Origin: Promethearchaeota archaeon
Lineage (GTDB): Archaea > Asgardarchaeota > Lokiarchaeia > Sigyniarchaeales > SOKP01
Reading direction: 5' to 3'
NCBI GenBank assembly: GCA_048940645.1
Contig: JBHLOI010000006.1
Span: forward strand, 47,316 to 111,315
DNA length: 64,000 bases
Shown here: piece by piece, positions 20,025 through 53,312 of the stretch
Position numbering within the stretch: position 1 is the stretch's first letter
Layout: the number at the start of each line of letters is the position of its first letter
The notes under the pieces: generated by a model
The model's database searches: none
What the model was told of the DNA's origin: nothing
Seen by the model: only the letters and a program-made list of their open reading frames with translations
Made by a program: the position numbers and the translations under genes

Positions 20025-20396
20025 TTAATCCAATAGAGCTGCTATTCTATTTGCTACACTCTGAATGTTGAGAAAAACCATTCCTAAACTTGCATTTGCA
20101 TGGCATAATGTACATAATATAGCATTTTCACCAGCTTTAGACAGAATTATAATTCCACTTACTCCCTCAATAAGAATCCTTTTTAAACCTCCACGATCTA
20201 ATTCCTCAACCGCTCTTTCTGATACACTCTGAATTGCTGCTGACATAGCAGATACAATACCATCATTTACATCACGGCTTAAAACAGAACAAATTGGAAG
20301 TCCTTGTACACTAACAATAGCCGACCCCTCTATATCCGAATTTACAGCAGATAATTTTCTTAGCAGATCTGTAAGTTCACTGATGTTTTCAGACAA
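20025..20396 (-). CDS. Roadblock/LC7 (MglB-like) protein
   Basis: IEGSAIVSVQGLPICS..VSAMSAAI..ELDRGGLKRILIEG..LGMVFL; GGAGG upstream of the TTG start. Confidence 0.92.
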   Translation of the reverse strand: MSENISELTDLLRKLSAVNSDIEGSAIVSVQGLPICSVLSRDVNDGIVSAMSAAIQSVSERAVEELDRGGLKRILIEGVSGIIILSKAGENAILCTLCHANASLGMVFLNIQSVANRIAALLD

Positions 20397-21627: not shown

Positions 21628-22758
21628 TTGAAAAAAAAAATTCTATATATGAAAAAGTTGAAAATTGCCCTTGTTTCTCTCACAATTTCTCCAGATAGTC
21701 AAGATGGAAGTGCAAAATTTTTTTCAGGAATATATAATTATCTGAAAAATAGAGGACATGATGTTAAAGTTATAACTGGTAGATGGAACCTTAATTTAGG
21801 TGATCCAAATGTTTCACAAATTAAAATAATTCGAAAGAGTTATTTATGGATACCTCAATTCACTTTAAAAGTCAATAGATTTTTAAGAAATACTGATTTT
21901 GATATTATTCATGGAAATGGACCTAAAGGTACTTTACCCTTACTATTATACAACAAAAAAAATTTTATCTCAACTATTCATGATCTAGGACCTATTGAAT
22001 CTAGTTTTTCATTAATTCCAATTGAGAAGATATTAATTAATGAGGTTATTAAAAAGGCTAATATCATAACAACATGTTCAGAATTTACTAAACATCAAAT
22101 TAAAAATTTCTTTCCTAAAATTGAAACGAATAAAATTCATAATTTATATTCGGCGATTGAAAGCAAATTTAAACCTTATCCTAAAAAAGCGGAACAACTT
22201 AAAGAAAATTTTGGCTTAAAAGGCCCTGTAGCTTTATATATTGGACGTATAGCCTTGTATAAGGATATTGAAAACGTTATTAAAGCATATAAATATGCAA
22301 AAAAAGAAATAGCTAATCTTGAATTAGTAATTGGTGGAACCCCAGATTTTTATATGAAGGAAACTTATAAAAGGTGGAAACAAAAATATAAAGATATTCA
22401 CTTTATTGGTTTCATTCCAGAAGTAGAACTTCCAATTTATTATAGTATGGGTGATGTTTTTATTACTTATTCATATTCTTCAGAGGGATTTGGGTTAACT
22501 CCAATTGAAGCAATTGCATGTGGAACACCCGTAATTTGTTCTTCTATAGGAGCGTATAAGGAAGTTTTGCAAGACAATGCTATTTTTGTTCCACCCAAAA
22601 AACCACAATTTTTAGCAAGGGAACTAATAAATTTGATTAATGATGATGAAAAGCGCAAAGAATTACTTAAGAATGCTCAAAACTTTATATCCAGATATTC
22701 GTGGAATTCTGTTGGAGAAAAATTAGAGAAAGTATATGAAAGATTTTTATCAATATAA
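21628..22758 (+). CDS. GT4-family glycosyltransferase
   Basis: YIGRIALYKD, EGFGLTPIEAIACGTPVI. Confidence 0.92.
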   Translation: MKKKILYMKKLKIALVSLTISPDSQDGSAKFFSGIYNYLKNRGHDVKVITGRWNLNLGDPNVSQIKIIRKSYLWIPQFTLKVNRFLRNTDFDIIHGNGPKGTLPLLLYNKKNFISTIHDLGPIESSFSLIPIEKILINEVIKKANIITTCSEFTKHQIKNFFPKIETNKIHNLYSAIESKFKPYPKKAEQLKENFGLKGPVALYIGRIALYKDIENVIKAYKYAKKEIANLELVIGGTPDFYMKETYKRWKQKYKDIHFIGFIPEVELPIYYSMGDVFITYSYSSEGFGLTPIEAIACGTPVICSSIGAYKEVLQDNAIFVPPKKPQFLARELINLINDDEKRKELLKNAQNFISRYSWNSVGEKLEKVYERFLSI

Positions 22759-22767
22759 GATGAACTT

Positions 22768-23838
22768 CTAGTTTTTCATTTTTTTACTAAATTCATTTAA
22801 AGCTATGTCTATTGGATTTTCTAATTGTCTAACTTTCTCATTTGTGTTTATTTTATAATTTTTATCTAAAAATTTTAAAGCAGTATTGATTATCAAATCA
22901 GCATTCCTTACATGTTTTAACGGAAAACCATGATCTATAAGAAATTGCTCTTGAGGATAAGTGGCTAATGGAAAAAATTCTATTGAAGGAACACCTAATA
23001 ACGCAGATTCTCTAACCATCGTACCTCCTCCAGTTATAACCATTTTAGCATAAAACATAAAATGTGCTAGATTGTTTAATCCAGTGTAAATACTAATTAT
23101 ATTTTGTTTGATGTGTTTCTTGAAAAAATTATTTAAATATTTATACTGTTCAATATTTCGAGTTAATATTAAAAATTTTAAATCAACTTCATTTTCTAGT
23201 AATTCTGGTATGATTTTACTTAACTTTGTTTCATGAGGAGCCATTTTATCTGTTAAATACCCTGCTTTTGATGGTTCTGTTCTACATACAATGTAGCTAT
23301 CAGGACTAAGCCCATGGGATTTAATGATTTCTCTATTTGGTTTAAAATCTGAAAGCCATCCAACCTCATCAATCCCATTAAATCTTATTATTCTCTCCTC
23401 CTTTAATCCGTAATCCAAATACCATTCGATAGGTATACATTGAGGAACTATAATTTGATTAACATATGGAAAAGTTGTGGAGCATGGACCATAAGATCGT
23501 GGTTCATCATTAAACATAATATTAGGAATTTGAAGACCAAACGAAATTCTCATTGCTTCTGGAGACGTTATACAAAATAAAAAATTAGGTTTTTTTTTAA
23601 TTATAATTTTTATTAATCTAGATAATCTATTCGAATAAGCTAATAATTTTCCTTCTAAAGTTCCGCCACCATAGCTTCCTACAGGAGTATAACTAACATT
23701 CCATTGATTTAATAAGAAATGAGTAGAATCGAAATCTCTAGCTGTTATAAAAACTTCATAATCCTCTATTAAACTCTCATAAAGAGGTCTTAACATAGTG
23801 ACACTCTTTGGCTCACAAAAATCTAACCATATTTTCAT
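22768..23838 (-). CDS. DUF354-family GT-B fold protein
   Basis: MKIWLD..PK, VFITARD, GGGTMVRESALLGVPSI. Confidence 0.85.
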   Translation of the reverse strand: MKIWLDFCEPKSVTMLRPLYESLIEDYEVFITARDFDSTHFLLNQWNVSYTPVGSYGGGTLEGKLLAYSNRLSRLIKIIIKKKPNFLFCITSPEAMRISFGLQIPNIMFNDEPRSYGPCSTTFPYVNQIIVPQCIPIEWYLDYGLKEERIIRFNGIDEVGWLSDFKPNREIIKSHGLSPDSYIVCRTEPSKAGYLTDKMAPHETKLSKIIPELLENEVDLKFLILTRNIEQYKYLNNFFKKHIKQNIISIYTGLNNLAHFMFYAKMVITGGGTMVRESALLGVPSIEFFPLATYPQEQFLIDHGFPLKHVRNADLIINTALKFLDKNYKINTNEKVRQLENPIDIALNEFSKKMKN

Positions 23839-23860
23839 GAAATCCCTTCTAAGTATTTAC

Positions 23861-24865
23861 TTAAACACGTGGTTTATAGTTCCAAAATTCTGGGTTTTTA
23901 GTAATCCAATCAATTTCTTTCTTAATCCCTTCAACAAAATTCGTTTTTGGTTGATATCCTAATGTCTTATGAATTAGAGAATTATCAAGTATAAAATCTC
24001 GTAATTCTCCTGGCAATCTCCTTCGATCTGGTTGATATTTACTTGCCTTTCCTGGTGGAGGATTGTCAAAAATTGGATTTAATGTAGAGTTTCCAAATAG
24101 TTTTATTAAAATATGTGCTAAATCAACAATTGAGTATGAGGTTCCTCCACCAACATTAAACACCATCCCATTGCCCTTTTCACTTTTTATTGCCATCATA
24201 TTTGCTTCAACAACATCCGATATATATACAAAATCCCTTCTTTGTTTGCCATCACCAAAAATAATAGGTGATTTCCCCTCTAATAGACGTTTTATAAATA
24301 TTGTTAATACTCTTCCGTACCATTCACGAGGACCATATACTATTCCATATCTCAGAGAGATAGTTGGGAGATTATTTAATAAAAAATACTGACTACAATA
24401 CTTCTCTCCAGCTAATTTACTTACACCATAAGGCCAATGAGGCAAAAGAGGATGGTTTTCAGATTCTGGTATAAATTGTGCTTGACCATAAACGCCTCCC
24501 GATGACGCATATACTAATTTTTTAATATTATTTTTTAAAGAAGCATTTAAAACATTTAGAGTACCTATAATATTCGTCTTCAAGTCATGTAAGGTATTTT
24601 CTATTCCCGTAAAAACTTCTAATTCAGCAGCATGGTGTGAAACAATGTCTATATTTTTCATGCATGAATTTAATTTATTAAAATCTAATATATCACCCTC
24701 AATAATCTTAACTTGTTTGTTTTGGATGAACTCTTTATTTCCTGTTGAAAAGTTATCATATATTATTATATTCTTCGCTTTCTCTTTAATAATGCGATCT
24801 GCTAAATGAGATCCAATAAATCCTGCTCCACCTGTTATTAAAACATTTTTATCTTTGATTTCCAT
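23861..24865 (-). CDS. NAD-dependent nucleotide-sugar epimerase/dehydratase (extended SDR)
   Basis: TGGAGFIGSHL, YASS, PYGVSK (YxxxK), IFGDGKQRRDFVYI. Confidence 0.95.
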   Translation of the reverse strand: MEIKDKNVLITGGAGFIGSHLADRIIKEKAKNIIIYDNFSTGNKEFIQNKQVKIIEGDILDFNKLNSCMKNIDIVSHHAAELEVFTGIENTLHDLKTNIIGTLNVLNASLKNNIKKLVYASSGGVYGQAQFIPESENHPLLPHWPYGVSKLAGEKYCSQYFLLNNLPTISLRYGIVYGPREWYGRVLTIFIKRLLEGKSPIIFGDGKQRRDFVYISDVVEANMMAIKSEKGNGMVFNVGGGTSYSIVDLAHILIKLFGNSTLNPIFDNPPPGKASKYQPDRRRLPGELRDFILDNSLIHKTLGYQPKTNFVEGIKKEIDWITKNPEFWNYKPRV

Positions 24866-25124
24866 TATGATTCTTTATTAATTATTTATATAGGATTCTA
24901 ATCCTCTAATTATTATAAGAAACCTTTAAATTAATCTATTACTTGGTTGAAAATGAAAATTTAATTATTATTATATTTTTAAATACTGTCCCTTTATTAT
25001 ATCTTTCAATATATGTTTCAACAAAAGTTCACATCTAAAGAGTTGTAGAAAAATTAATTTAAATTATGGATAATTTCTTAAAGTCATATTTTATTTTAAA
25101 AAATATAATTAAAAAATCGATTCT

Positions 25125-26489
25125 ATGATTTTAATATCACAATTAAACTGGGAATTACTTGAAATATTCTATTTAATTATTATTTTTCTTAGCGGTTTTC
25201 TTGTAAGTTATATATTTATACCATATCTCATGAAATTAATGAGGAAAAAACGGTATATTGGATATGATATTCACAAAAATGCAAAACCTGAAATTCCTGA
25301 ATCAGGAGGTTTAAGCCTTATCCTTGGATTGACAGTAACTTCTATATTCTCGATCATATTTTTTCCTGCATTGCGTAATGAATTGTTAATTTTCCTCTTA
25401 ACGATTCTATTATCCGGAGCAATTGGTTTTATAGATGATCGGATAAAATTAAGATCACTATATAAGATTTTATTAACAATTTTTACAGGAGTAATTATTT
25501 TTGTGGCAAATTTTTTTGGTTTTATAACCATTCATTCTCCTACAATACCTTTCTTAGGATTTACAAGATTAACAAGAATTTATCCATTTGTGGCTCCTTT
25601 AATCGTAGCTTTTTTTGCGAATACATCAAATATGCTAGAAGGATATAATGGTGAAGGTTCAGGGACATCCTTAATAGCATTATTTTTTCTTCTAATTTGT
25701 GCTATATTTTGGAATTCTGCTGAAGCTTTAATATTCATTATTTCTGGAATTAGTGTTTTGATTCCTTTTTTCCTATATAATAAATTCCCTGCTAAAATAT
25801 TTCCTGGAGATGTAGGTACTTTAGGCATGGGTTCTCTTTTTGCGTGTATTGCATTATTAGGTTCTTTGGAGGTTGCAGTATTTTGCGCACTTCTCATTCA
25901 AGTTATTAATAGTTTTTATGTGATTAGTTCTGTAAAAGGTTTTTTAGAAAGCAGTGAGATTCAAACTCAGAAAAATGATATAATACTTTTAGAGGATGAT
26001 AGAATAAAAGCTTCTGATCAAAAAGATGCAGCATTAACTTTACCTAGATTAATTTTAGCAAAAGGACCATTAAAAGAACCAGAATTAATAAAACAATTTT
26101 ATATTATTTCAATTATTTGTGGGATTTTTTCCATAACAGCATTCTTATCTATACAATGGACATTAGGAAATTTAGATACTCTTATATTTCTTCTTTTTTT
26201 CATGATTTTTTTAGTTTTAATTATATTAATTTCATACTTTTTCCCCAGAATAAGAGGAACCGTAATTTTAATGATAGTCCTTTTAGGTATAATTAGTATT
26301 TCATTGTTTTTTATCGATTCTGTTATTATGTCGATTTTTCAACAGGATATTAACTTGGGGATAATTATTATTCCTAGTAATATTCTTTTTTCAATACTTT
26401 TAGTTGCTCCAGGATTGATATTATGGTATTTGTTAACAATCAAATTTTTTTGGAGACAAATTGAAAAAATGAAAGAGTCGGGAACATAG
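25125..26489 (+). CDS. aglH: UDP-GlcNAc:dolichol-phosphate GlcNAc-1-P transferase (AglH/Alg7/DPAGT1-like)
   Basis: GYDIHK..PEIPESGG, IGFIDD, NMLEGYNG, YNKFPAKIFPGDVG. Confidence 0.85.
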   Translation: MILISQLNWELLEIFYLIIIFLSGFLVSYIFIPYLMKLMRKKRYIGYDIHKNAKPEIPESGGLSLILGLTVTSIFSIIFFPALRNELLIFLLTILLSGAIGFIDDRIKLRSLYKILLTIFTGVIIFVANFFGFITIHSPTIPFLGFTRLTRIYPFVAPLIVAFFANTSNMLEGYNGEGSGTSLIALFFLLICAIFWNSAEALIFIISGISVLIPFFLYNKFPAKIFPGDVGTLGMGSLFACIALLGSLEVAVFCALLIQVINSFYVISSVKGFLESSEIQTQKNDIILLEDDRIKASDQKDAALTLPRLILAKGPLKEPELIKQFYIISIICGIFSITAFLSIQWTLGNLDTLIFLLFFMIFLVLIILISYFFPRIRGTVILMIVLLGIISISLFFIDSVIMSIFQQDINLGIIIIPSNILFSILLVAPGLILWYLLTIKFFWRQIEKMKESGT

Positions 26490-26591
26490 ACTTTTATGTA
26501 TACTATGATTCCCTTTAAACAAAACCCAATATTAATATTTTTCACAAAATTTTTACAATCATAATTTTTATTAAATTACTTTAAGGCAATC

Positions 26592-27656
26592 ATGAAGAAA
26601 ATATTAGTTACTGGTTCTGGAGGTCCAGCAGGAGTAAATTTTCTAAAGTCATTGAATTTAGTCAAAGAGAAAATCCAATTATATGGTACAGATATTAATC
26701 CTTATCATTTAGAATTTGGAAAACCCTGGACAAAAAAAATGTTTTTAATTCCTCGAGCAGTTTCGGATCAGTTTATACCAAGCCTAAATGAAATAATAAA
26801 TCAATATAAAATAGATTTTATCCATCCTCAACCTGATATTGAGGTCTTAAATGTTTCTGAAAATCGTGAAAAACTTAATGCAATTACTTATTTACCAAAA
26901 AAAGAAACAATTCGAATATGTCAAGATAAATTTTCTAGTGCTGCTATTTGGAGAAAAAAAAATTTTCCTTCTATTAGAGCCATTGAAATCAGGGACACCC
27001 ATTTAGAAAGTGATCTGGAAAATGCATTTAATGTATTAGGAGAAAAATTATGGATACGTGCCAAAAAAGGTGCTGGTGGCACCGGAAGCACTCCAGTTGA
27101 AAATGTAGAGACGGGAGTTAATTGGATAAAATATTGGCGTTCCCGCGGTAAAAAATGGGAATTTATTGCCCAAAAATATTTACCAGGTAGAAATATCGCT
27201 TTTCAAAGTATTTTTAAAAATGGAGAATTAATAACTTCACAAGCAAGAGAAAGAATTGAATATATCTATCCCTATCTCGCTCCTTCGGGAGTAACAGGAA
27301 CTCCTATAGTAGCTAAAACTATACATGATTATAATGTAAATAATATAGCTACCCAGACAGTACTAGCAATTGATCCAGACGCAACAGGAGTATTTTGTGT
27401 TGATTTAAAAGTGGATGAATCCGGAGAAATTTGCCCTACAGAAATTAATGCAGGTAGATTTTTTACAACGAGCTATTTTTTCTCTTACGCAGCCAAAAAA
27501 TTTAATAATCCTCTAGCAAATATGCCATACATTTTAGTAAAACTTGCATTTAAAGAATCAATACCTGAAGGTCAAAAATTTAATGTTTTACCAAAAGATC
27601 TCTATTGGATAAGGCATATTGATTGCTCTGAACATTTAATTGAAGGGAAAAATTAA
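26592..27656 (+). CDS. ATP-grasp protein (type found in glycan loci)
   Basis: ILVTGSGGPAG, CQDKF, KKGAGG, QKYLPG, VDLK, PTEINAGRF. Confidence 0.85.
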   Translation: MKKILVTGSGGPAGVNFLKSLNLVKEKIQLYGTDINPYHLEFGKPWTKKMFLIPRAVSDQFIPSLNEIINQYKIDFIHPQPDIEVLNVSENREKLNAITYLPKKETIRICQDKFSSAAIWRKKNFPSIRAIEIRDTHLESDLENAFNVLGEKLWIRAKKGAGGTGSTPVENVETGVNWIKYWRSRGKKWEFIAQKYLPGRNIAFQSIFKNGELITSQARERIEYIYPYLAPSGVTGTPIVAKTIHDYNVNNIATQTVLAIDPDATGVFCVDLKVDESGEICPTEINAGRFFTTSYFFSYAAKKFNNPLANMPYILVKLAFKESIPEGQKFNVLPKDLYWIRHIDCSEHLIEGKN

Positions 27657-27681
27657 TTTTTATATAAAAATATTTCATCTT

Positions 27682-27981
27682 TTATAAGTCATTATTACAT
27701 CTACAGGGCTTATTACCGCATTTTTTGCACTGATTTGGGTATTTATTAAAGAGGGCATCCTCTAAATCAATATTCAATAAATTTGCTAATGAATTTGTCC
27801 ATGCAATGATATCAGCTAATTCTTCTGAAACTTTATTAGTATCAATATTATCTTTTCTTAAAAGTGTCGCTAGTTCACCGATTTCTTCAACTAACCAAAT
27901 GAATGTATTTTTAATGCCTCTCTTACAATCTTTCTTAAAATATAACTCTTTAATCAAATCTTGAAACTCAGAAATCTTCAT
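27682..27981 (-). CDS. MazG-family nucleotide pyrophosphohydrolase with C-terminal Cys cluster
   Basis: WLVEEIGELA, EELADIIAW, CKKCGNKPCRC. Confidence 0.9.
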   Translation of the reverse strand: MKISEFQDLIKELYFKKDCKRGIKNTFIWLVEEIGELATLLRKDNIDTNKVSEELADIIAWTNSLANLLNIDLEDALFNKYPNQCKKCGNKPCRCNNDL

Positions 27982-28029
27982 AATAAAATCTTACTAAGTA
28001 TAATAAGAATAAGTGATTTAAATTTAAGA

Positions 28030-28239
28030 TTAAAAAAACCATTCAAAAATACCAAGATGAGCAAATATTACAACTAATATTAATACAAGTGTCATAATAA
28101 CTGTACTAATAGGTCCCACCTTTATTCCAATAGAACTATCCTCGAAAAACCTCATTAATCCCGCTCCTCCCATAGGCATTGGAGCAGTTCCACTTCGTCT
28201 TTTTCGACGTCTTGATTGGTTTCTTCTTCTTGTAGACAT
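28030..28239 (-). CDS. secG: Preprotein translocase subunit Sec61-beta
   Basis: GAGLMRFFED..GIKVGP followed by a single TM ending in H; basic N-terminus. Confidence 0.92.
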   Translation of the reverse strand: MSTRRRNQSRRRKRRSGTAPMPMGGAGLMRFFEDSSIGIKVGPISTVIMTLVLILVVIFAHLGIFEWFF

Positions 28240-28398
28240 GATTTTCTAATTTATTAAAAAGTTTTTAATCAAGAATTATTTAAATATAGAGATCTATTAA
28301 TATTAAGTTTTATCCCGAATCATAAAAATAAAATTAAATAAATTTTTATTATTTATTTTAATTATTTGTAGTTAATTTAAGGAGTAAAATAAAAAAAT

Positions 28399-30276
28399 AT
28401 GTTTAGAAAAAAAAAATTTTGTATATTAGCTTTAGGATTGATATTTCTTATTATATTAATATCAAATATTCAATATAATTCCAGAAACAGTAAGAATAAC
28501 GAAGTATATATAACTCCAAAATTATCTACAAGTTTAGAGGGCGCAGAGAATATATTAATTACAGACGTTTTACGAACCATAAACGTTAGTGGATATGATT
28601 TGGTAAATTTTAAGGACGAATTAAGGATTTTAAATCAAAATAATAACCCAATTACTTCAATATTTATTCCAATACACTTAAACGAATCAAATGATGTAAT
28701 CTTTTGTAAAGCAACTGGTGAGAGCAAGAATGCTTTGTTAATTGAAAGAGCCCATCTTGTTTTAAACGATTATGAACTAATTGCTATCTATTTTGATACA
28801 CCACTATTACCCCATCAACACACAACTATATCTTTCTACCATTCACATAAAGATAGTTTAATTTATTACACTTTACTTAATGAAGAATATCAAATTGAGC
28901 AACATATCAATATCACAGAATCTCTTTTTCCAATTTTACCTTATAAAGCAGCAGGCGGGGTAGTCCAGACACAAATAATATTCCCTGAGGCTTCTGATAT
29001 AGTGAATTATGAAAAGGTAATTGACCTTGGAATCCCTATCACCCCAACTATATTAGTATATGATTTGAGTCAAAGTGTTTATTTTGATCATGTAGACCCC
29101 TTTCTAGCAAATTTCAATAAATCTCAACAAGAGATCTTAATCACTATTCAAGACAATAGATTTTCCAAAATGGAATTCGAAAAAATCGATCGGGAAATAA
29201 ATATTTCACCATGGGGTATAATTAAAGTTAAAGAGAATTATATACTCCAAAATCTGGGAGTTATAGATATAAGTACTTTCCCTTTACACGTTCCATATAG
29301 CTCTAAAAATGTGCATGTGTATGACGATATTGGTGCCATTGGTAATCCAGTTGTTGCCTTGAAGGATAGTGAGGTATTTTTAAATAAAAAATCATTTACA
29401 ATTAATTTAGCTCAAAACAGAGTCCCATTAAAACCATTATCTAAAATTAGATTTACTGTAGAATATGTTTTAGACATATATGAATATATTTCAATAAATT
29501 GGTTTCAAGAGTCAATCCAAATCAATTTATTTACAACAACCTTTGAATGTTTGGGTAAGGAACAAACTATAAATGTGGTTATTCAAGGATGTAATAGTTT
29601 AGAATATGTGTCGCTTCCGCCTGATGCAATAATTGATGCTGGAGGTGCAAAAACTTTAGTATATTACTTTGAATTTGTAACCCCAATTGAATCTAAAATG
29701 ATTCAATTCACTTTTTCAATTGATCTCTTTGAATTATTACTCAGACCAATCATAATTTCATTAATTATTGGATTTTTGGCATCAATTTATGTTATAGTAA
29801 TTAAAATCAAAAAAGAAAGAGAAGAAAAATTTGTTACTGAAAAAGTTGAAATACCCGTAGATGAGCTTCGCGAATTTTGTTCATTACATGAAGAAAAAAA
29901 TGCTTTAGTTTTAGAAATTAGAAGAGCGGAAGAAGATGCTAAACGTAAAAAAATAGCAAAGAAAATATTCAGTAATCTTTTAAGCAAAAACACTACTAAA
30001 ATAGAGCAAATCAAACAAGAATTACTTCCGTTTAAAAAAGCTTTAATGGAAACTAGTGAAACTTTTGAAAATATTATCAAGAAATTAGATGTCTTAGATG
30101 CTGAAAGAGAAAGTGTGAATGATAGTCTAAATTTATTAGATAATCGATATAAAAGAGGTAAGTTACCCTCAAAAGCGGCTTATCAAAAACTCCTCGAAGA
30201 TTTCATGAAAAGGAGGAGACGGATTGATAGAACAATAGATAAAAATATTCAACAATTAAGAAGCTATTTACTATAA
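28399..30276 (+). CDS. Ribophorin I (OST1/RPN1) homolog
   Basis: N-terminal signal/anchor; beta-rich lumenal region with DREINISPWGIIKVKENY; TM LLLRPIIISLIIGFLASIYV; ~155 aa helical cytosolic tail. Confidence 0.8.
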   Translation: MFRKKKFCILALGLIFLIILISNIQYNSRNSKNNEVYITPKLSTSLEGAENILITDVLRTINVSGYDLVNFKDELRILNQNNNPITSIFIPIHLNESNDVIFCKATGESKNALLIERAHLVLNDYELIAIYFDTPLLPHQHTTISFYHSHKDSLIYYTLLNEEYQIEQHINITESLFPILPYKAAGGVVQTQIIFPEASDIVNYEKVIDLGIPITPTILVYDLSQSVYFDHVDPFLANFNKSQQEILITIQDNRFSKMEFEKIDREINISPWGIIKVKENYILQNLGVIDISTFPLHVPYSSKNVHVYDDIGAIGNPVVALKDSEVFLNKKSFTINLAQNRVPLKPLSKIRFTVEYVLDIYEYISINWFQESIQINLFTTTFECLGKEQTINVVIQGCNSLEYVSLPPDAIIDAGGAKTLVYYFEFVTPIESKMIQFTFSIDLFELLLRPIIISLIIGFLASIYVIVIKIKKEREEKFVTEKVEIPVDELREFCSLHEEKNALVLEIRRAEEDAKRKKIAKKIFSNLLSKNTTKIEQIKQELLPFKKALMETSETFENIIKKLDVLDAERESVNDSLNLLDNRYKRGKLPSKAAYQKLLEDFMKRRRRIDRTIDKNIQQLRSYLL

Positions 30277-30310
30277 AAATCATTATTTTTCTCTAAAAGT
30301 GAGTTCTTTT

Positions 30311-30934
30311 ATGAAACCATGGCTATTTGACATTTTAGCATGCCCTATAGATAAACATTTCCCCTTAGAATTATATATTTTTTCATTTGGAACAAAGGAA
30401 GATGAATTTCAAACATTTGTAAATAATTATAAGAAAAAAGATTTAGAAATTGTTAAAAAAGAAAGTATTCTTGAAATATTTCGAGAAAATGAGGATATAT
30501 TTATCAAAGATAATGTTATCATCGAAAAAAATCCTATTCAAAAATATCTTGAGTTAATAATTTCAAGTATTAATGAATTTGATTTTATATATGATAATTC
30601 ATCAAGTAAAGCTAGCAAAATATGTTTCAATATAATTAAAAATGAAATTAAAAAAAAAATTATAACCTATTCTAAAAATATACAGCTTGACAAGATTGAA
30701 ACATTATTGCCAGAATTATTTTTTATAAATAAAATTAAACTCGAAACTGAAATTGAGTCAGGGCTTTTATTCTGTCCAAAATGTAAACGTTGGTTTCCCA
30801 TAAGAGACAGCATCCCACAAATGCTTCCAGATGAATACAGAAATAAAAATGAAGAAATTGACTTTTTAAAATATAATAGTAAATTATTGGGAGAAAAATT
30901 TTTTAAACACGATTTAAAACCATTTAATATTTAA
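30311..30934 (+). CDS. trm112: Trm112-like methyltransferase activator with a large helical insertion (ORF track start 30299)
   Basis: MKPWLFDILACPIDKHFPL ... IESGLLFCPKCKRWFPIRDSIPQML split zinc-ribbon motif. Confidence 0.85.
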   Translation: MKPWLFDILACPIDKHFPLELYIFSFGTKEDEFQTFVNNYKKKDLEIVKKESILEIFRENEDIFIKDNVIIEKNPIQKYLELIISSINEFDFIYDNSSSKASKICFNIIKNEIKKKIITYSKNIQLDKIETLLPELFFINKIKLETEIESGLLFCPKCKRWFPIRDSIPQMLPDEYRNKNEEIDFLKYNSKLLGEKFFKHDLKPFNI

Positions 30935-30966
30935 ATTCTAATGAATTTATTTATCACATAAATAAA

Positions 30967-31039
30967 AGCCCGGTGGTGTAGCGGCCAAGCATATGGGGCC
31001 TTGAACCCCGTGACCACGGTTCGAATCCGTGCCGGGCTA
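30967..31039 (+). tRNA. tRNA-Gln(UUG), intron-less, CCA not encoded
   Basis: Cloverleaf: AGCCCGG/CCGGGCT acceptor (A1-U72), TGGGG/CCCCG anticodon stem, loop CC-TTG-AA, CACGG-TTCGAAT-CCGTG T arm. Confidence 0.92.
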
Positions 31040-31145
31040 TAATTAAAACTTTTTATTAGTAAAAAAGATTTTAAAGAAATTTAAACAAACAACGATTTTT
31101 TGCCTTAATAAAGTTTAATTTAGATGTCCTTTTTAAAAAATTAAT

Positions 31146-32096
31146 ATGAAAAGCACTATTAAAAATATTTTAAATCTTTTACGAATAAGACAGTACTATA
31201 AAAATATATTGATTTTCGTAGGTTCTTTCTTTGGTGGAAAATTATTGGACATTTCACTTTTACCACTTCTTATTTTAGGTTTTATTATTTTATGTTGCGC
31301 ATCTTCAATCAACTATATTATAAATGATATAATGGATATCGAAAAAGATAAGTTACACCCAGAAAAGCTAGAAAAAAAAGCCCTTGCTTCTGGAAAACTT
31401 TCTGTAAAGTTTGCCCTGGCATTGATAACATTCCTTTCTGCAGTTATAGTAATTTTATTAATATTTTTAATCCCAAATTTAAATTTTATCATCATGTTGG
31501 TATTAGTATTTGGAACGGGACAATTATATAATTATTTCTTTAAAAGATTTGCATTTATTGATGTTTTAGTTTTAGCATTAATTTACCTATGGCGTGCTTT
31601 AGCAGGATGCGTCTTGATAGATGTTGTTGTATCTCCATGGTTAATTTTAGCGGTATATGAAAGTGCCTTATTTTTGGTTATTGCAAAAAGAAAAGGAGAT
31701 TTAATCCTATTAGGAGAAGAAAAAGCTAAAGTACATAAAAAAATCTACAAACAATATAACATGAAATTGTTAGAACAATTCCATACGATTACTGCGGCTA
31801 CTATCTTAATAATTTATATTATGTATTTGATCTCTCAATTCTATCTATTCGAAGATTTGAGATTTTTTTATCAATACTTAATAATCTTATCTATTCCAAC
31901 TTTGTTTTATATTATTATGAGATATATGTTTTTAACCTCATCGAAACCTGAAATTGCTCGGAGTACTGAAAAAGTAATTTTTGATAAGGGAATCCTTATT
32001 GCGGGGTTATTTTTAGGTGCGATATTCTTTTTTACTTTTTATTATATTGACATAAAGCAGATTTTATATGATTTGTTTAAAATATCTTTACCTTAA
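31146..32096 (+). CDS. UbiA-family prenyltransferase, polyprenyl-phosphate phosphoribosyltransferase (DPPR synthase)-like
   Basis: LLRIRQYYKN, YIINDIMDIEKDKLHPEK, KRKGDL. Confidence 0.85.
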   Translation: MKSTIKNILNLLRIRQYYKNILIFVGSFFGGKLLDISLLPLLILGFIILCCASSINYIINDIMDIEKDKLHPEKLEKKALASGKLSVKFALALITFLSAVIVILLIFLIPNLNFIIMLVLVFGTGQLYNYFFKRFAFIDVLVLALIYLWRALAGCVLIDVVVSPWLILAVYESALFLVIAKRKGDLILLGEEKAKVHKKIYKQYNMKLLEQFHTITAATILIIYIMYLISQFYLFEDLRFFYQYLIILSIPTLFYIIMRYMFLTSSKPEIARSTEKVIFDKGILIAGLFLGAIFFFTFYYIDIKQILYDLFKISLP

Positions 32097-33648: not shown

Positions 33649-35424
33649 ATGGAAATGGAAAAGAAAAATGTAGCAATCATTATTCTTGCCATAGCATTAA
33701 TCGCCTCAGGCGTAGGCAACATTATACTTGTTGTACAACCAGAATTAGTAGCTCCAACAGCAACACGGGTTGTTAAATTCGGTAACATGTATATAGCTGA
33801 GGATATTGATCCTCAATATTCCTGGGATTCCGCTTCTTTTGATGCGGAGATGATGGTCTGGGAACAATTATTCAAGAATAATTTAACTGCCCCTGCCCTT
33901 GGAGTTAATATGGAAGCATTTCCCTTACTAGCAACTGATATGGGTACTTACGATGTAACAGGAACAGAATTAACTGTTAACCTTAAACCAGGAGTTTTGT
34001 TCCACGATGGCACCCCTTGTGATGCCGATGCTGTTGTATGGAGTTTTATGAGATTATTATACTTGATGAATACCACATGGAATGGTGGTCCTCATCCTTG
34101 GGGCCCTCTACCAGGTACCGTCTTTTATAACATCCCAACTATTGTCGATTCCTTATATTATGTTGGTGGTGTTCCAATCATTGAAAATGTTGAAGCCATT
34201 ACCTCAACACAGGTAAAATTTACTTTAAGTCAACCTTATGGGGTTTTCCGTGCTTTATTAACATTTCCAGCATCATCTATCATGTCTCCTACTTCTACAC
34301 CACAATACGACTATATTAATCCTGCTTTAGTTGATACAGGTATCTGTGTTGGAACTGGTCCTATGGAAATACTAAAACTTGAAACTTATGAAGTAAGATT
34401 CAAGGCTTTTGAAAATTATCATCGACCAAGAATTGGTTTTGATGTTTTAGTACATGTTAAAATCCAAGATGGTGATGCCAGAAATATGGCAGTACTTTCT
34501 GGTGCGGTAGATATTATAACAGATCCTTTCTTCTCATACTTCCCTACAATGGATGCTGAACCAGAAGTTACTCTATTAAATACAGGTACAGTAAATTCTA
34601 TTACCCAATACATGGGTATTAATAACAAATGGTACAACATAACATGGAGAAATGTATTTTCATATGCATTTAACTATACTGGAGTAATTGATGGTATAAT
34701 GGAAGGCTATGGAGTTAGAATGAAAACACCCGTACCGCCAGGTATTAAGTATCATAACGACACATTCGATTGCCCAACCTATAATCTTGCAACGGCTAGA
34801 TCATATATGCAGAGCATGGGTTATGGAATTGGATTTACTACAGATGCAGAATGGGAGGCAGCAACTTTTCTAACTGTCAACTATACCTATAACACTGGCA
34901 ATTTAGTCAGAGAAGGTGTATACGATATATTAGAACAAGCCTTTGATAAAGTTGGAATAGTTGTAGAGGATGCGGGCATGACTTGGGAAGATTTCAAGGA
35001 CCGATTATACAATAGAAGGGTATCAAGTGCCGGCTATAATGCTATGCATCTTTGGTGGGTCGGATGGATCCCTGACTATAACGATCCTGAGAACTTTTTC
35101 AACCCATTAATGCATCCTGATTCATCCAGTAACGCTGCTCAAGTAAATGATGCTTATCTAAATGGATTAATGGCAGCAGGAATCTCTACAACTGATGAAC
35201 AGGCAAGAAAACACATTTATTGGGAGGCTCAACGATACGTCGTTGAAGATCTCAGACATTGGCTATTCGGCTACCATGGAGAGAATTTTGATACCTTTGA
35301 CAAAGACCTTAAAGGATGGGTTGGCAATCCAATCGGATATAATGATTTCTACGGAACTTACTGGGACGGAAAACTTTTACCAGGCGAATACGGATATATG
35401 GAAGATGGATATATCCCTACCTAA
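33649..35424 (+). CDS. dppA: ABC transporter substrate-binding protein, family 5 (DppA/OppA)
   Basis: N-terminal anchor; LKPGVLFHDGTP.DADAV, VGTGP, GWIPDYNDP. Confidence 0.9.
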   Translation: MEMEKKNVAIIILAIALIASGVGNIILVVQPELVAPTATRVVKFGNMYIAEDIDPQYSWDSASFDAEMMVWEQLFKNNLTAPALGVNMEAFPLLATDMGTYDVTGTELTVNLKPGVLFHDGTPCDADAVVWSFMRLLYLMNTTWNGGPHPWGPLPGTVFYNIPTIVDSLYYVGGVPIIENVEAITSTQVKFTLSQPYGVFRALLTFPASSIMSPTSTPQYDYINPALVDTGICVGTGPMEILKLETYEVRFKAFENYHRPRIGFDVLVHVKIQDGDARNMAVLSGAVDIITDPFFSYFPTMDAEPEVTLLNTGTVNSITQYMGINNKWYNITWRNVFSYAFNYTGVIDGIMEGYGVRMKTPVPPGIKYHNDTFDCPTYNLATARSYMQSMGYGIGFTTDAEWEAATFLTVNYTYNTGNLVREGVYDILEQAFDKVGIVVEDAGMTWEDFKDRLYNRRVSSAGYNAMHLWWVGWIPDYNDPENFFNPLMHPDSSSNAAQVNDAYLNGLMAAGISTTDEQARKHIYWEAQRYVVEDLRHWLFGYHGENFDTFDKDLKGWVGNPIGYNDFYGTYWDGKLLPGEYGYMEDGYIPT

Positions 35425-35468
35425 TCTAGAGGATACCAGATATACATAATTAATCAAATTAAATTATA

Positions 35469-35505
35469 TTTTTTTTTTATTATTTTTTATTATTTTCATT
35501 ATTTT
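35469..35505 (+). terminator. Oligo-T tract after dppA, probable archaeal intrinsic terminator
   Basis: T10 run followed by repeated ATTATTTT units about 45 bp after the stop. Confidence 0.45.
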
Positions 35506-35513
35506 CAGATTAA

Positions 35514-35791
35514 GACTACAAAAGAAAGAACCCCAAAGAACCAATTAAACTATTTAGAGATGGTGTTCAGATTTTTGAACAGAATGTATTAGGGATAATT
35601 TTAAAAAGTAAGAAATTAAAGAATTATTTAAAAAATATATGAAAAAGTAATCTGAATTAAATGCGGTATTAACGATTTTTGGAATCAATTCTACTGTTAA
35701 AGCTGCCAAAATTTGCACAGATTCAGTCACTTATTCGAAACCTAATAATTTTGAAGATTTGGTATTAGATCGCGGAGGTATATTGGTATGA
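35514..35791 (+). pseudogene. Probable degraded gene remnant
   Basis: Protein-like fragments DYKRKNPKEPIKLFRDGVQIFEQNVLGII... and LNAVLTIFGINSTVKAAKICTDSV...DRGGILV* in different frames; final TGA overlaps the next ATG (ATGA at 35788). Confidence 0.35.
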
Positions 35792-36645
35792 GCTCAAAAG
35801 GTTTATTTAAAAGTCCCCCACCTAAATTAAAATCATTTAAAAATGATATTGCTCCAATTGGGTTTTATTTTGATCTATTTGCCCCCGATCTATTTAAAAT
35901 TCCTGTAATGCCCGTTCCAATGAGAATTGATAAAATTTCAAACGGAATGCCCACTTTAATTATTTTTCCTAACATTATTAAATTAAATAGCTTATGTCAA
36001 CAGTTAAATCTATCTATCAACTACGAGCTATTTTTCTTTATCGGACTTAAAAATCTAATAAATTACACAAAAAAGAAATATAAAGAAATAACATATCGAG
36101 CATTAGGAGAAAATAAAGTTATAGATTGGTTTAATTATTCAAAGATAATAACCGCAGATATTTCTTATCTTACAAATGATTTTACGTTTTTAACTTCTGA
36201 ATTTCTAAAATTATATTCAAAAATTGATTTTAATAAGGATATAGAAGAATATCATCCTGAATTTATCCAATATTGCGATAGAATAATTAATTTTTTAAAA
36301 CATCGAATAGAAAATAATATATTAGAAGATGAATCTGAAAATATTATTAAAACTGAAAAATTATATGAGGAAAGGGAAAATAAATATTTTCCAAATATAA
36401 TTTCTCTAAAAATTTATAATTCTAATATAAAAAAATGGAAAACTATGAATTTCATTCCGTATTTGATATATGATGATCTGTTTGATTCATTTTCCTATAA
36501 CAAGAAATTATTAGATGGAGAAAATCATCCACTGTTTGATTTACAATTATGGAAAGAAAATAATATAATTAATAACGGATCGAAAACTAATGAATTTGAT
36601 TTTAAAAAATTTCTAAATGGTCTTAATATAAAAGATTTAAAGTAG
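35788..36645 (+). CDS. Hypothetical protein
   Basis: 285 aa ORF with GGAGG upstream; Pro-rich N-terminal motif PIGFYFDLFAP..PVPMRIDK. Confidence 0.75.
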   Translation: MSSKGLFKSPPPKLKSFKNDIAPIGFYFDLFAPDLFKIPVMPVPMRIDKISNGMPTLIIFPNIIKLNSLCQQLNLSINYELFFFIGLKNLINYTKKKYKEITYRALGENKVIDWFNYSKIITADISYLTNDFTFLTSEFLKLYSKIDFNKDIEEYHPEFIQYCDRIINFLKHRIENNILEDESENIIKTEKLYEERENKYFPNIISLKIYNSNIKKWKTMNFIPYLIYDDLFDSFSYNKKLLDGENHPLFDLQLWKENNIINNGSKTNEFDFKKFLNGLNIKDLK

Positions 36646-36656
36646 GGAATGTTAGT

Positions 36657-37112
36657 ATGAAAAAAAAAATTGAAATTGGACGACAAGCTAAATTTATTCT
36701 AGCATGTTTATTAATTCATTTTTTATACTTTGGATATATATGTAATGTATATGAAAAATCAATCGGAGAGAATATTCTCTTTTTGTATAAAGTAATGTTT
36801 AATCCCCAATCATATTTATCGCTAATTATTTTATTTGGTATTATTTTTATTACTGTATTCAGAGAAAGATTTTTTGAATATGGGATGAGAAATAGTATGT
36901 GGTTAATTCTGTTTATAATATTCGAATCCTGGATATGGTATTGGTTTATTAATGGATTTGATATTCTCATAATTTTTACATTTTTTACAAGGTATGAAGC
37001 TTATATATCAATTCTATCATTAGTAGGTGTAAATTTACTATCAGCATTTCTTGGCGCTATTTTAAAAGAAAAATATTTAAAGTATCTTGAAAAAGTTAAA
37101 ACAGTTTCCTAA
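36657..37112 (+). CDS. Small 4-TM membrane protein
   Basis: Four hydrophobic segments; RERFFEYGMRNS loop. Confidence 0.75.
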   Translation: MKKKIEIGRQAKFILACLLIHFLYFGYICNVYEKSIGENILFLYKVMFNPQSYLSLIILFGIIFITVFRERFFEYGMRNSMWLILFIIFESWIWYWFINGFDILIIFTFFTRYEAYISILSLVGVNLLSAFLGAILKEKYLKYLEKVKTVS

Positions 37113-37118
37113 TCTATC

Positions 37119-37150
37119 AAAAAAAAAAAAAAAAAAAAGAAAAGAAAAAA
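37119..37150. repeat. A20 homopolymer followed by GAAAAGAAAAAA
   Basis: Seen directly between the 4-TM gene and dppB. Confidence 0.9.
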
Positions 37151-37177
37151 ATTTTATATAGGGTGATCTAATAATCT

Positions 37178-38194
37178 ATGAGTATGATCAATTATATCTT
37201 CAAAAGAGTTCTAAGTATGATACCAGTGTTATTTGGCGCTTTACTTCTAACATTTGTTCTTTCTAGAGCCATGCCCGGTGATCCGGTTTCAGCGTACCTC
37301 CCTGCCAGAGCCACTCCTGAACAATATTGGGAAGCATACTATGCATATGGATTTCATCTTCCCATCTGGCAACAATTCTTTATATACCTTGGGAATATAT
37401 TCACAGGAAATTGGGGTAATTCTATAAATGTTGCTAAAGGTGTACCAGTTTGGGATTTAATTTGGGAGCGACTACCCAGAACAATAGATATTACTCTCTT
37501 CTCGATGATTATTGCTGCATTTATAGGAATTAAAACTGGAGTAATTTCAGCAAAGCATCGAAATAAATGGAGGGATACGGTTTTTAGAGGTACAGCCCTT
37601 ATTGGTGTATCAATCCCTGTTTTTTGGTTAGGGTTATTATTGCAATATTTTATCTCTTATCAATTGGGTTGGTTACCTAATATGCACTTTAAAGATGCTG
37701 GATATCCAGATCCTCCTGTAGTTACGGGTTTTAGAATAATTGATTCGTTAATATCAGGACAGTGGTACTTAGTAGGGGATTATTTAGTCCACCTAGCGCT
37801 ACCAGTCTTCTCTTTATCGTTTATTTTTCTCGCATCAATTACACGGCAAACTCGATCAAGTATGCTTGAAGTTCTTCAACAAGATTATATAAGAACTGCT
37901 CGTGCAAAAGGGTGTAAAGAAAAAGATGTAATTAAGAAGCATGCTCGGAAGAACGCATTAATACCAACTATAACAATCATTGGATTAAACGTCGGAGGGT
38001 TATTAGGCGGAGCATTTTTAACAGAAACAACTTTTAATTTATTTGGAGTAGGTAATCTTTTGTTAGAGGCTATTACAGGTAATGATTATAATACCCTTAA
38101 TGCGATTGTAGTTATGACAACGTTAGTTTTTATTATTGTGAATTTATTTGTGGATATAATTTACGCCTATTTAGATCCTCGAATAAAATATTAA
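37178..38194 (+). CDS. dppB: Peptide ABC permease
   Basis: MPGDP, SIPVFWLG, EAA loop QDYIRTARAKG; GGGTGA SD upstream. Confidence 0.93.
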   Translation: MSMINYIFKRVLSMIPVLFGALLLTFVLSRAMPGDPVSAYLPARATPEQYWEAYYAYGFHLPIWQQFFIYLGNIFTGNWGNSINVAKGVPVWDLIWERLPRTIDITLFSMIIAAFIGIKTGVISAKHRNKWRDTVFRGTALIGVSIPVFWLGLLLQYFISYQLGWLPNMHFKDAGYPDPPVVTGFRIIDSLISGQWYLVGDYLVHLALPVFSLSFIFLASITRQTRSSMLEVLQQDYIRTARAKGCKEKDVIKKHARKNALIPTITIIGLNVGGLLGGAFLTETTFNLFGVGNLLLEAITGNDYNTLNAIVVMTTLVFIIVNLFVDIIYAYLDPRIKY

Positions 38195-38212
38195 ATTTTA
38201 TAATTCAAAAAG

Positions 38213-39235: not shown

Positions 39236-39289
39236 TTTTTTATTTTTTTTAAAAAAATACAATTAGATTAAGATTGATGATTAAGAATA

Positions 39290-40537: not shown

Positions 40538-40584
40538 AAATTAATTTAATATATAACATAATAAAGAAGGTAAGGAAGAAGAAT

Positions 40585-52799: not shown

Positions 52800-53312
52800 T
52801 TAAACATTAAACAACCTTTCACCAAGCTTTATTGTTATTATTGCTTGTAATGCAACAAAAGCAGTAATAACTAAAATCATTCCTATAACTAAAATTTTTA
52901 CTGCCGTTTTCTTATTATATACATATTTAGATGCTTGATATACTAATAAAAATCCTATAGAACAAAGAAAAATGAAAATTGAAGCTACTATACTCTCAAT
53001 TATAAAAGCTTCGTTAAGATCAGGATATAATAGAACAGCATTACCCTGATTATCTGCTCCTATTGCTACAGGTTCTCTATAAATAATATATACTATTCCC
53101 ATCTGAAGTAAGAATAAAATAATATAAATTCCTATAACCACTAAAGACTTACCTGGTAAAGGCATATCCATTTTAGGAAGTTTTATCTGCGGGTAGGCTA
53201 TTTTAGGTTTCCGTAATGAATTTCCAAATATCCATGGAGTCCTACTCTTCATTTTTTCAAAAACTGTTTCTGAACCACTGATTTCTTCTTTAGCAGTTTT
53301 TCGTTTTTCCAT
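52800..53312 (-). CDS. OST3/OST6-family membrane subunit, OSTC/DC2-like (3 TM, no thioredoxin domain)
   Basis: GIVYIIYREPVAIG...LNEAFIIESIVASIFIFLCSIGFL...IKLG pattern of OST3/6-DC2 TM region. Confidence 0.72.
   Translation of the reverse strand: MEKRKTAKEEISGSETVFEKMKSRTPWIFGNSLRKPKIAYPQIKLPKMDMPLPGKSLVVIGIYIILFLLQMGIVYIIYREPVAIGADNQGNAVLLYPDLNEAFIIESIVASIFIFLCSIGFLLVYQASKYVYNKKTAVKILVIGMILVITAFVALQAIITIKLGERLFNV

Follow-up and report, generated by a model that had tools for sequence, protein, structure and literature searches.

In Haloferax, Methanococcus and other archaea the genes of N-glycan assembly are grouped in agl clusters round aglB. Translocon and oligosaccharyltransferase (OST) homologs of the Asgard archaea are central to the debate on the origins of the endoplasmic reticulum (ER) and of co-translational N-glycosylation. 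Counterparts of Ost1-5, Swp1, Wbp1 and TRAP (the translocon-associated protein complex) have been reported in this group (Eme et al. 2023, PMC10307638). AlphaFold2 models of the Sec61, OST and TRAP components of strain MK-D1 have been built and superimpose on the human structure 8B6L; the tail of MK-D1 OST1 binds ribosomes, and the abstract of the same paper describes MK-D1 as a cell without internal membranes (Carilo et al. 2024, PMC11417166). Glycoproteomics of MK-D1 found N-glycosylation mainly on an oligopeptide-type solute-binding protein, the one heavily glycosylated protein detected. The N-glycans were linear and made up of N-acetylhexosamine (HexNAc), hexose, pentose and a probable amino-acid-modified HexNAc, the conventional core was absent, and the agl genes did not lie grouped close to aglB (PMC11284389). 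The present analysis concerns the gene for a homolog of ribophorin I/Ost1 (RPN1) and its neighbours at positions 21628-32096 of a stretch of Asgard DNA of 64,000 nucleotides (contig C68 of genome G000, positions 47316-111315), which we call the window and to which all coordinates refer unless a locus is named.

We consider it likely that in this part of the window the RPN1 gene anchors an N-glycosylation gene island conserved among Asgard archaea. The linkage would be regulatory and evolutionary; it does not amount to an operon for a complete complex. The component proteins and the multi-subunit Sec61-OST-TRAP system of Asgard archaea have been published already, and only the conserved neighbourhood seems to be unreported, a modest new detail; we found no prior description of it in the literature searched, and papers beyond that search may hold one. 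The source, a Loki-type Asgard archaeon, is represented by a metagenome-assembled genome of 3.83 Mb in 126 contigs, 89.6% complete and with about 29% G+C. Gene identities were taken from a listing of open reading frames (ORFs) and Pfam scans, together with NCBIfam, PDB sequence and Foldseek fold searches. All nine genes that a first-pass annotation had named in the stretch are present with the identities given to them, RPN1 being recognised by its fold and by a match to PDB entry 8WHN. Two genes missing from that list, for a Trm112-like protein and a tRNA-Gln, lie there as well.

RPN1 and its closest neighbours

The argument turns on the following features (aa, amino acids).

28399-30276, plus strand: ribophorin I/Ost1 homolog (RPN1), 625 aa (Foldseek, PDB 8WHN match, AlphaFold model)
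28240-28398, no strand: divergent spacer between the Sec61-beta and RPN1 genes, 159 bp (alignment of 12 spacers)
28030-28239, minus strand: Sec61-beta/SecG-type translocon subunit, tail-anchored, 69 aa (Pfam Sec61_beta PF03911, 46.5 bits, cut-off 27)
25125-26489, plus strand: AglH/Alg7(DPAGT1)-type polyprenyl-phosphate HexNAc-1-phosphate transferase, 454 aa (Pfam Glycos_transf_4 PF00953, 93.5 bits)
30299-30934, plus strand: Trm112-like zinc-ribbon protein, 211 aa (Pfam Trm112p PF03966, 48 bits, match split over residues 9-171)

Fold and transitive sequence homology together give good support for placing the 625-residue protein in the RPN1/Ost1 family. An AlphaFold model based on 16 homologs from the order (alignment A1; predicted local distance difference test score, pLDDT, 82.7) predicts an N-terminal anchor helix, a beta-rich exoplasmic region of two beta-sandwich domains (residues 52-441), a transmembrane helix (443-475) and then a cytosolic four-helix bundle of the metazoan RPN1 type with helices at 487-624. 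The top eight PDB hits of this model in Foldseek were human RPN1 (8b6l_O, 6s7o_E, 8pn9_E, 6s7t_E) and yeast Ost1 (7oci_A, 6ezn_A, 8agb_E, 6c26_1) at E 2.7e-34 to 3.9e-22, and the next fold came at 9e-9. About 620 columns align with human RPN1 in OST-A, so that the cytosolic bundle is included, at 16-17% identity. Residues 472-625 match 8WHN, the crystal structure of the MK-D1 OST1 cytosolic domain (E 1e-35). The sequence matched neither Pfam Ribophorin_I (PF04597), even at E <= 10, nor any NCBIfam family. Two homologs found with a Loki profile (labelled Heimdallarchaeota and Heimdallarchaeum aukensis), which are among the most distant RPN1 homologs, match PF04597 at 61.7 and 36.7 bits (cut-off 25), and it is because they pass this cut-off that the homology is supported transitively. 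With the Loki-based profile an RPN1 homolog was found in 278 of the 301 genomes of the phylum.

In family f11 (L033:7677-10640, plus strand, labelled Thorarchaeota; also L031, L032 and L034) and in family f30 the RPN1 homolog is longer, with about 985-1230 residues. The added N-terminal part of about 445 residues contains a prolyl isomerase domain of the FKBP type (149-231) and an Ig domain of the Big_7 family (348-412); in these families the OST accessory subunit would bear a fused folding enzyme on its exoplasmic side.

The genome has a single PF00953 gene, the AglH-type one. Taken singly its product is equidistant from MraY and DPAGT1 (each at E about 1e-9); a profile made from 14 Asgard homologs gave 133 bits with human DPAGT1 against 107 bits with MraY. 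Judged by these scores it belongs to the DPAGT1-like subgroup of the PNPT family. Its hydrophobic C-terminal module of about 110 residues (26150-26489) matches no Pfam family. The module is fused to AglH in Lokiarchaeales and family f16, and in Freyarchaeum- and Helarchaeota-labelled loci and in f20 it is a separate ORF of 92-112 aa directly downstream of an AglH of 328-352 aa (L030:7480-7791, minus strand; L027:4862-5188, plus; L028:13651-13929, minus; L022:2305-2643, minus; L038:7557-7886, minus).

Synteny was sampled over about 9 kb on either side of the RPN1 homolog in 20 genomes from four families of the order and in 25 genomes from 16 other Asgard families, and the ORFs of each locus were probed with the window proteins by tblastn and jackhmmer. 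A scan of the collection with the single RPN1 protein added 20 further loci. Pfam confirmed the AglH and Trm112 assignments in representative loci. In 17 of the 20 order loci the Sec61-beta and RPN1 genes stand head-to-head, 102-176 bp apart, and they are head-to-head in every one of the 20 further loci. Trm112 was found within 2.6 kb of RPN1 throughout the order sample (20/20), at 0-368 bp after RPN1 in most loci, 19-48 bp in family f1 and 1.4-2.6 kb in genus g5. AglH is 0.1-3.4 kb from RPN1 in 14 of these 20 loci; it is missing from five loci of the MK-D1-like family f2 (L010-L013 and L019) and from L018 of family f4. One of them, L011 (genome G038), has an RPN1 tail identical to 8WHN save for one residue and is taken as MK-D1, which belongs to the order of the window's genome but to another family; it retains only Sec61-beta/RPN1-Trm112 of the neighbourhood.

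Sec61-beta has the basic N-terminus and single C-terminal hydrophobic transmembrane helix expected from its description as a tail-anchored subunit. The spacer between it and RPN1 is extremely AT-rich. Although their RPN1 proteins are only about 50% identical, members of the genus share blocks such as AAGTTTTAT..GAA and ATAAATTTTTATTA, and one TATA-like block is visible also in family f3. These conserved blocks may represent back-to-back promoters.

In the sample from outside the order, 14 of the 25 loci have AglH no more than 4.5 kb from RPN1. They come from 7 of the 16 families, among them those labelled Helarchaeota, Thorarchaeota, Freyarchaeum and Atabeyarchaeia together with f20 and f30. 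The two genes are head-to-head at 113-174 bp in Thorarchaeota- and Freyarchaeum-labelled loci, in f30 and, within the order, in f4, and head-to-head at 669 bp in a Helarchaeota-labelled locus; the spacing is 2.8-4.4 kb in f16, f20 and an Atabeyarchaeia-labelled locus. Trm112 is near RPN1 in 10 of the 25 loci (6 families, at 0.3-4.3 kb), DUF354 in five and the GT4 gene in three. As an internal control, Sec61-beta, MazG, the epimerase, ATP-grasp and UbiA genes, the M24 and M28 peptidases, the solute-binding protein and the OSTC-like gene were near RPN1 in none of these 25 loci, and the roadblock gene gave one weak match, 5.8 kb from RPN1 in L045. Where it was checked, Sec61-beta is 93-385 kb from RPN1 (Thor, Frey, Atabey and Heimdall genomes). 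Odinarchaeum yellowstonii LCB_4 and the sampled loci of f9, f18, f22, f26 and f31, two of which bear Heimdall labels, showed no AglH-RPN1 linkage; AglH is present elsewhere in the three unlinked genomes that were searched for it (Odin, f9 and f26). Linkage in relatives had been set beforehand as the test of the neighbourhood, and it is conserved: Sec61-beta/RPN1-Trm112 across the order and AglH-RPN1 in several Asgard classes.

Two loci may be described in their own right. In the 1.4-Mb genome of Odinarchaeum yellowstonii LCB_4, Sec61-beta is 17 kb from RPN1 (G041:C1 825142-843846). In family f20 a second, differently arranged island surrounds RPN1 (L027:1001-10830), in the order GT4, a PMT_2-type GT-C enzyme, AglH with its small ORF, a 332-aa gene, DUF354, an 89-aa Trm112, a xylose-isomerase-like TIM-barrel gene and RPN1.

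The lineage names of all relative loci (Thorarchaeota, Helarchaeota and so on) are public record labels. The record titles of L049, L050, L052, L064 and L065 contradict one another, reading Odinarchaeota, Hodarchaeota and Hermodarchaeota for near-identical or congeneric loci; their RPN1 proteins are 46-85% identical to that of the window. For these genomes the public labels are unreliable.

The Trm112-like gene probably starts at the ATG at 30311, where all its homologs begin (alignment A3). Its product has an insertion of about 120 residues between the zinc-ribbon halves, and in this order Asp takes the place of the second Cys in the first CxxC pair. Forms without the insertion, of 89-106 aa, occur in Thorarchaeota- and Heimdallarchaeota-labelled loci and in f20. 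The NCBIfam model Trm112_arch scored 52.8 bits and its cut-off of 77 was not reached. Trm112 is a partner of rRNA, tRNA and release-factor methyltransferases. Because this is the only PF03966 gene in the genome, its product is probably that canonical partner. A complex prediction of the RPN1 cytosolic domain (A2) with the Trm112-like protein (A3) scored 0.01 (mark 0.32), which speaks neither for nor against binding.

Sugar genes and other neighbours

The remaining features of the stretch are these.

21628-22758, plus strand: GT4-family glycosyltransferase, 376 aa (Pfam Glycos_transf_1, 121 bits, plus Glyco_transf_4)
22768-23838, minus strand: DUF354 protein with GT-B fold, 356 aa (Pfam DUF354, 157 bits)
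23861-24865, minus strand: nicotinamide adenine dinucleotide (NAD)-dependent sugar-nucleotide epimerase/dehydratase, 334 aa (Pfam Epimerase, 198 bits)
26592-27656, plus strand: ATP-grasp ligase-like protein, 354 aa (Pfam ATP-grasp_3, 24.8 bits, barely above cut-off)
27682-27981, minus strand: MazG-type nucleoside triphosphate pyrophosphohydrolase, 99 aa (Pfam MazG, 35.5 bits)
30967-31039, plus strand: tRNA-Gln(UUG) (ARAGORN)
31146-32096, plus strand: UbiA-family polyprenyl-phosphate transferase, DPPR-synthase-like, 316 aa (Pfam UbiA, 71 bits)

The GT4 gene is 0.01-5.6 kb from RPN1 in f1, f2 (genus g5) and f3, and its linkage outside the order is in f20 and f17. DUF354 adjoins AglH or RPN1 also in f20, f23 and f31. 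The DUF354 protein had no sequence match in the PDB. The best PDB folds for its model (pLDDT 91) were UDP-GlcNAc 2-epimerases (E 3e-14, template modelling score about 0.68), with GT-B transferases close behind, and text matches for DUF354 in the literature concerned only unrelated DUF354x families. Beside AglH we identified neither an Alg13/14 nor an Agl24 homolog, and most Asgard archaea lack Alg13, Alg14 and Agl24 (PMC8993221). It might be thought that DUF354 is the missing Alg13/14-like second-step transferase; we do not claim this, the fold search having ranked UDP-GlcNAc 2-epimerases just above GT-B transferases.

The epimerase and ATP-grasp genes form a variable cassette. The cassette is absent from most genus relatives, and a hexapeptide acetyltransferase gene takes the place of both in other members of the genus. 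NCBIfam matches of the epimerase/dehydratase to the RmlB, GalE and LegB types were all under their cut-offs, as was the 72-bit match of the ATP-grasp protein to the PRK12767 type (carbamoyl-phosphate-synthase-like). The nearest relatives of the UbiA gene are decaprenyl-phosphate phosphoribosyltransferases or DPPR synthases (NCBIfam PRK12324, 163 bits; PDB 8j8j, E 1e-22). Since the equivalog cut-off of PRK12324 (234 bits) was not reached, we call the gene DPPR-synthase-like and not a shown member. Its linkage to RPN1 is confined to family f1. MazG follows Sec61-beta downstream in most order loci. Genus relatives carry a gene for an 849-aa M48 (Ste24/HtpX-type) membrane protease between AglH and UbiA (L003:13204-15753, plus strand, with equivalents in L006-L009), and the window has none there.

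Two features flank the stretch. The 123-aa Roadblock/LC7 protein encoded at 20025-20396 is 91-99% identical between members of the genus that share only about 50% identity in RPN1. On the other side, genes for a family-5 (oligopeptide-type) solute-binding protein and an OppBCDF-like ABC transporter occupy 33649-41724, beginning 3.4 kb downstream of RPN1, and this position is conserved within family f1. Small membrane ORFs resembling Ost4, Ost5 or Sec61-gamma were sought in the intergenic space of the window, where Sec61-beta was the only convincing candidate.

The OSTC-like gene and AglB

Three genes at a distance from the stretch had to be considered together with it, two in the window and one on another contig.

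52800-53312, minus strand: OSTC/DC2-like member of the OST3/6 family, 170 aa, three hydrophobic segments (Pfam OST3_OST6 PF04756, 31 bits, cut-off 27)
60895-61218, minus strand: small two-transmembrane protein with acidic tail, 107 aa, of doubtful membership in the system (sub-threshold PIG-P, DPM3 and DPM2 matches)
L067:8131-12018 (contig C46 of genome G000), minus strand: AglB/STT3, 1295 aa (STT3 domains)

An N-terminal lumenal thioredoxin domain defines Ost3, Ost6, TUSC3 and MAGT1 proper. The 170-aa protein has no such domain, and its OST3_OST6 match covers only the transmembrane module (profile positions 179-288 of 294); for these reasons it is OSTC-like and not an Ost3/6 protein proper. 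Its best PDB relative is human OSTC, matched over residues 14-144 of 149 at E 1.6e-6, and the PDB search returned no Ost3, Ost6, TUSC3 or MAGT1 chain at E <= 10. The OSTC-like label given earlier to this gene thus stands, with a profile match above cut-off and a nearly end-to-end relative, and is better than Ost3/6. The gene is loosely linked to RPN1, not clustered with it. Between it and the island lie an oligopeptide ABC transporter, FtsJ and Trm1 methylases, RadA-like genes, fructose-bisphosphatase and others. It is separated from RPN1 by 20-27 kb in genus g1, by about 10 kb in genus g5 of f2, by 4.5 kb in f3 and by 14 kb in genus g4 of f4. Three genomes of the order that consist of one contig (G038, G032 and G033), MK-D1 among them, have it about 0.9-1 Mb away.

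The 107-aa gene had been called DPM2-like, a label we could not confirm, as its Pfam scores stay below threshold: PIG-P at E 0.0085, DPM3 at 0.016 and DPM2 (PF07297) at 0.036, the last being 14.8 bits against a cut-off of 27.3. Among 20 of its homologs 19 touched PIG-P (best 8e-6, under the 39-bit cut-off), 17 a holin family and 8 DPM2 (best 0.0045), so that the holin family was matched about as often as PIG-P. Altogether 631 homologs were found, of which the best 120 are 71-99% identical. The proline-rich acidic C-terminal tail is invariant. The gene stands between one for a class-II glutamine amidotransferase-like protein and genes for a PfkB kinase and a mannose-6-phosphate isomerase-type cupin.

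That the window holds no AglB/STT3, as noted before, agrees with the position of the sole STT3 gene found in the genome, on contig C46. Its product is unusually long: the STT3 transmembrane and core domains span only the first 580 residues or so, and some 700 C-terminal residues lie beyond them.

The neighbourhood and its relation to known systems

If the stretch is a glycosylation island, a possible course of events can be outlined. Back-to-back promoters in the 159-bp spacer would lead to joint expression of Sec61-beta, RPN1 and AglH. AglH is a few kb off here and directly adjacent to RPN1 in other classes, and would still be co-expressed with it. At the cytoplasmic side of the cell membrane AglH and the transferases would build, on a dolichol-type carrier, a glycan which GT4, DUF354 and a swappable cassette (here the epimerase/dehydratase and the ATP-grasp protein) may extend and tailor. 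The DPPR-synthase-like UbiA protein could supply a lipid-phosphate-pentose donor for the glycan pentose, and the composition of the MK-D1 glycan fits an ATP-grasp ligase and a lipid-phosphate-pentose synthase. AglB, with RPN1 and the OSTC-like subunit, would transfer the glycan to chains emerging from SecY/Sec61, and the cytosolic bundle of RPN1 might hold the ribosome, as shown for the MK-D1 ortholog.

Several observations weigh against a glycosylation island. The OSTC-like gene is 22.5 kb from RPN1, beyond peptide-transporter, RadA-like and tRNA-methylase genes. AglB is flanked by uvrA, uvrB, aIF5B, truA, RFC and enolase, and its surroundings contain no glycosylation genes. To our knowledge MazG, Trm112 and tRNA-Gln have no role in glycosylation. 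In MK-D1-like genomes AglH and OSTC are about 0.9-1 Mb from RPN1, and in the sampled Odin and Heimdall genomes AglH is not near it; because the linkage has been lost in these three groups it is dispensable. Moreover, related genomes are not independent samples, and the counts given above therefore overstate the statistical support.

Such losses, with no sign that the genes themselves disappeared, would be expected if the linkage were inherited synteny without functional meaning, in which single-copy housekeeping genes that were neighbours in the Asgard ancestor have not yet separated. The interleaving of unrelated MazG, Trm112, tRNA-Gln and M24 and M28 peptidase genes and the long-range order generally kept within the genus, for example by the roadblock and M24 genes, point the same way. 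We nevertheless regard this explanation as unlikely, since classes whose RPN1 proteins are only 25-30% identical have changed all other neighbours while AglH, Trm112 and often DUF354 stay, in varied order and orientation, and since AglH and RPN1 are head-to-head in several classes. By our own estimate, two single-copy genes would lie within 5 kb of each other by chance in roughly 0.3-0.4% of genomes of about 3 Mb. The clustering exceeds chance, but as the genomes are related no formal probability is claimed for it; as read from gene order, turnover of the flanks between classes with persistence of AglH, Trm112 and DUF354 is the usual signature of a selected neighbourhood.

A different possibility is that the sugar genes make another surface glycoconjugate, be it a glycolipid, a polysaccharide or an O-glycan, and that RPN1 and Sec61-beta are merely adjacent. 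The GT4, DUF354, epimerase, ATP-grasp and UbiA proteins are generic and below every equivalog cut-off, and DPPR synthase, the UbiA relative of known structure (8j8j), belongs to the mycobacterial pathway of cell-wall arabinan. The lack of a conventional core in MK-D1 N-glycans would also agree with such a role; their HexNAc and pentose argue in the opposite direction (PMC11284389). The AglH-type gene is the only one of its family in the genome, with a profile closest to DPAGT1, and its linkage to an OST subunit recurs across classes, so that an unrelated glycoconjugate is quite improbable. The ribosome binding of the MK-D1 OST1 tail (PMC11417166) can likewise be read as a sign that Sec61-beta, RPN1, Trm112 and tRNA-Gln are a translation-linked group, co-expressed with the translation apparatus, to which the glycan genes would be no more than secondary neighbours. 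Of all the pairs RPN1-Trm112 is kept most widely, being present in the whole order and six further families, one of which is labelled Heimdallarchaeota and has no AglH at that locus, and the Trm112-like protein, being the only one of the genome, is probably canonical. However, the neighbourhood contains no ribosomal-protein or translation-factor genes, and AglH, DUF354 and GT4 are met with RPN1 as frequently as Trm112 is; we consider a translation-linked group very improbable.

A glycosylation island anchored on RPN1 therefore remains our preferred reading. One may go further and propose, as a speculation that we think rather doubtful, that in the Asgard ancestor Ost1 was tied both functionally and by regulation to AglH/Alg7 and a Trm112-like protein and not to the catalytic STT3, and that Lokiarchaeales later inserted Sec61-beta head-to-head with RPN1. 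If this were true, glycan-donor supply, an OST accessory subunit and the translocon would have been coupled before any ER existed, and Trm112 (or DUF354) would be an unrecognised cytoplasmic component of the pathway. The current picture of Asgard N-glycosylation is unchanged by our finding. What it offers is an example of a neighbourhood kept across several Asgard classes, in which RPN1 travels with the glycan-starting enzyme and AglB lies elsewhere, and in Loki-type genomes with Sec61-beta too. It also yields a co-regulation prediction that is testable in cultured strains and, for a poorly understood glycan pathway, a set of candidates: DUF354, GT4, the ATP-grasp ligase and the UbiA enzyme.

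The first-pass annotation had proposed a partly clustered multi-subunit system of translocon, OST and dolichol pathway. The identities and the conserved linkage bear this out in part, but the system itself was already published, the OSTC-like gene is too far off to be called clustered and AglB is elsewhere. The label 'proto-ER' should be dropped, because MK-D1, according to the abstract of PMC11417166, is without internal membranes, and the machinery would accordingly be placed in the cell membrane. The multimer models and the glycoproteomics suggested as checks have both been published for MK-D1 (PMC11417166, PMC11284389). Gene order is not mentioned in PMC11417166, as far as a text search shows.

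One of the closest known systems is the MK-D1 translocon (OST1 WP_147663064.1, 8WHN). Its RPN1 is an ortholog with about 30% identity over the full length, in addition to the E of 1e-35 over the bundle, and the Sec61-beta/RPN1-Trm112 arrangement is identical in L011. Unlike the window, MK-D1 has no AglH, sugar genes or MazG beside RPN1; its AglH and OSTC-like genes, which are 33 kb apart, lie about 0.9 Mb away from RPN1. With the mammalian ribosome-Sec61-OST-A complex (8B6L, 6S7O) the window shares the RPN1 architecture including the cytosolic helix bundle, an almost full-length OSTC match and the Sec61-beta family. The mammalian complex differs in belonging to an ER, which MK-D1 lacks according to the abstract of PMC11417166, and in being an assembled complex, which in the present organism is a prediction; the subunits of subcomplex III, KCP2 and others were either not found or not looked for in this genome. 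The AglH-type enzyme resembles eukaryotic ALG7 (DPAGT1) as a member of the PNPT family whose Asgard profile scores DPAGT1 over MraY, and differs in its 110 or so extra C-terminal residues. Like the agl clusters of other archaea, the stretch is an island of glycosyltransferase and sugar-nucleotide genes with variable cassettes and an enzyme that starts the lipid-linked glycan. In contrast to them, its anchor is the non-catalytic Ost1/RPN1, joined in this order by Sec61-beta, and aglB lies among housekeeping genes.

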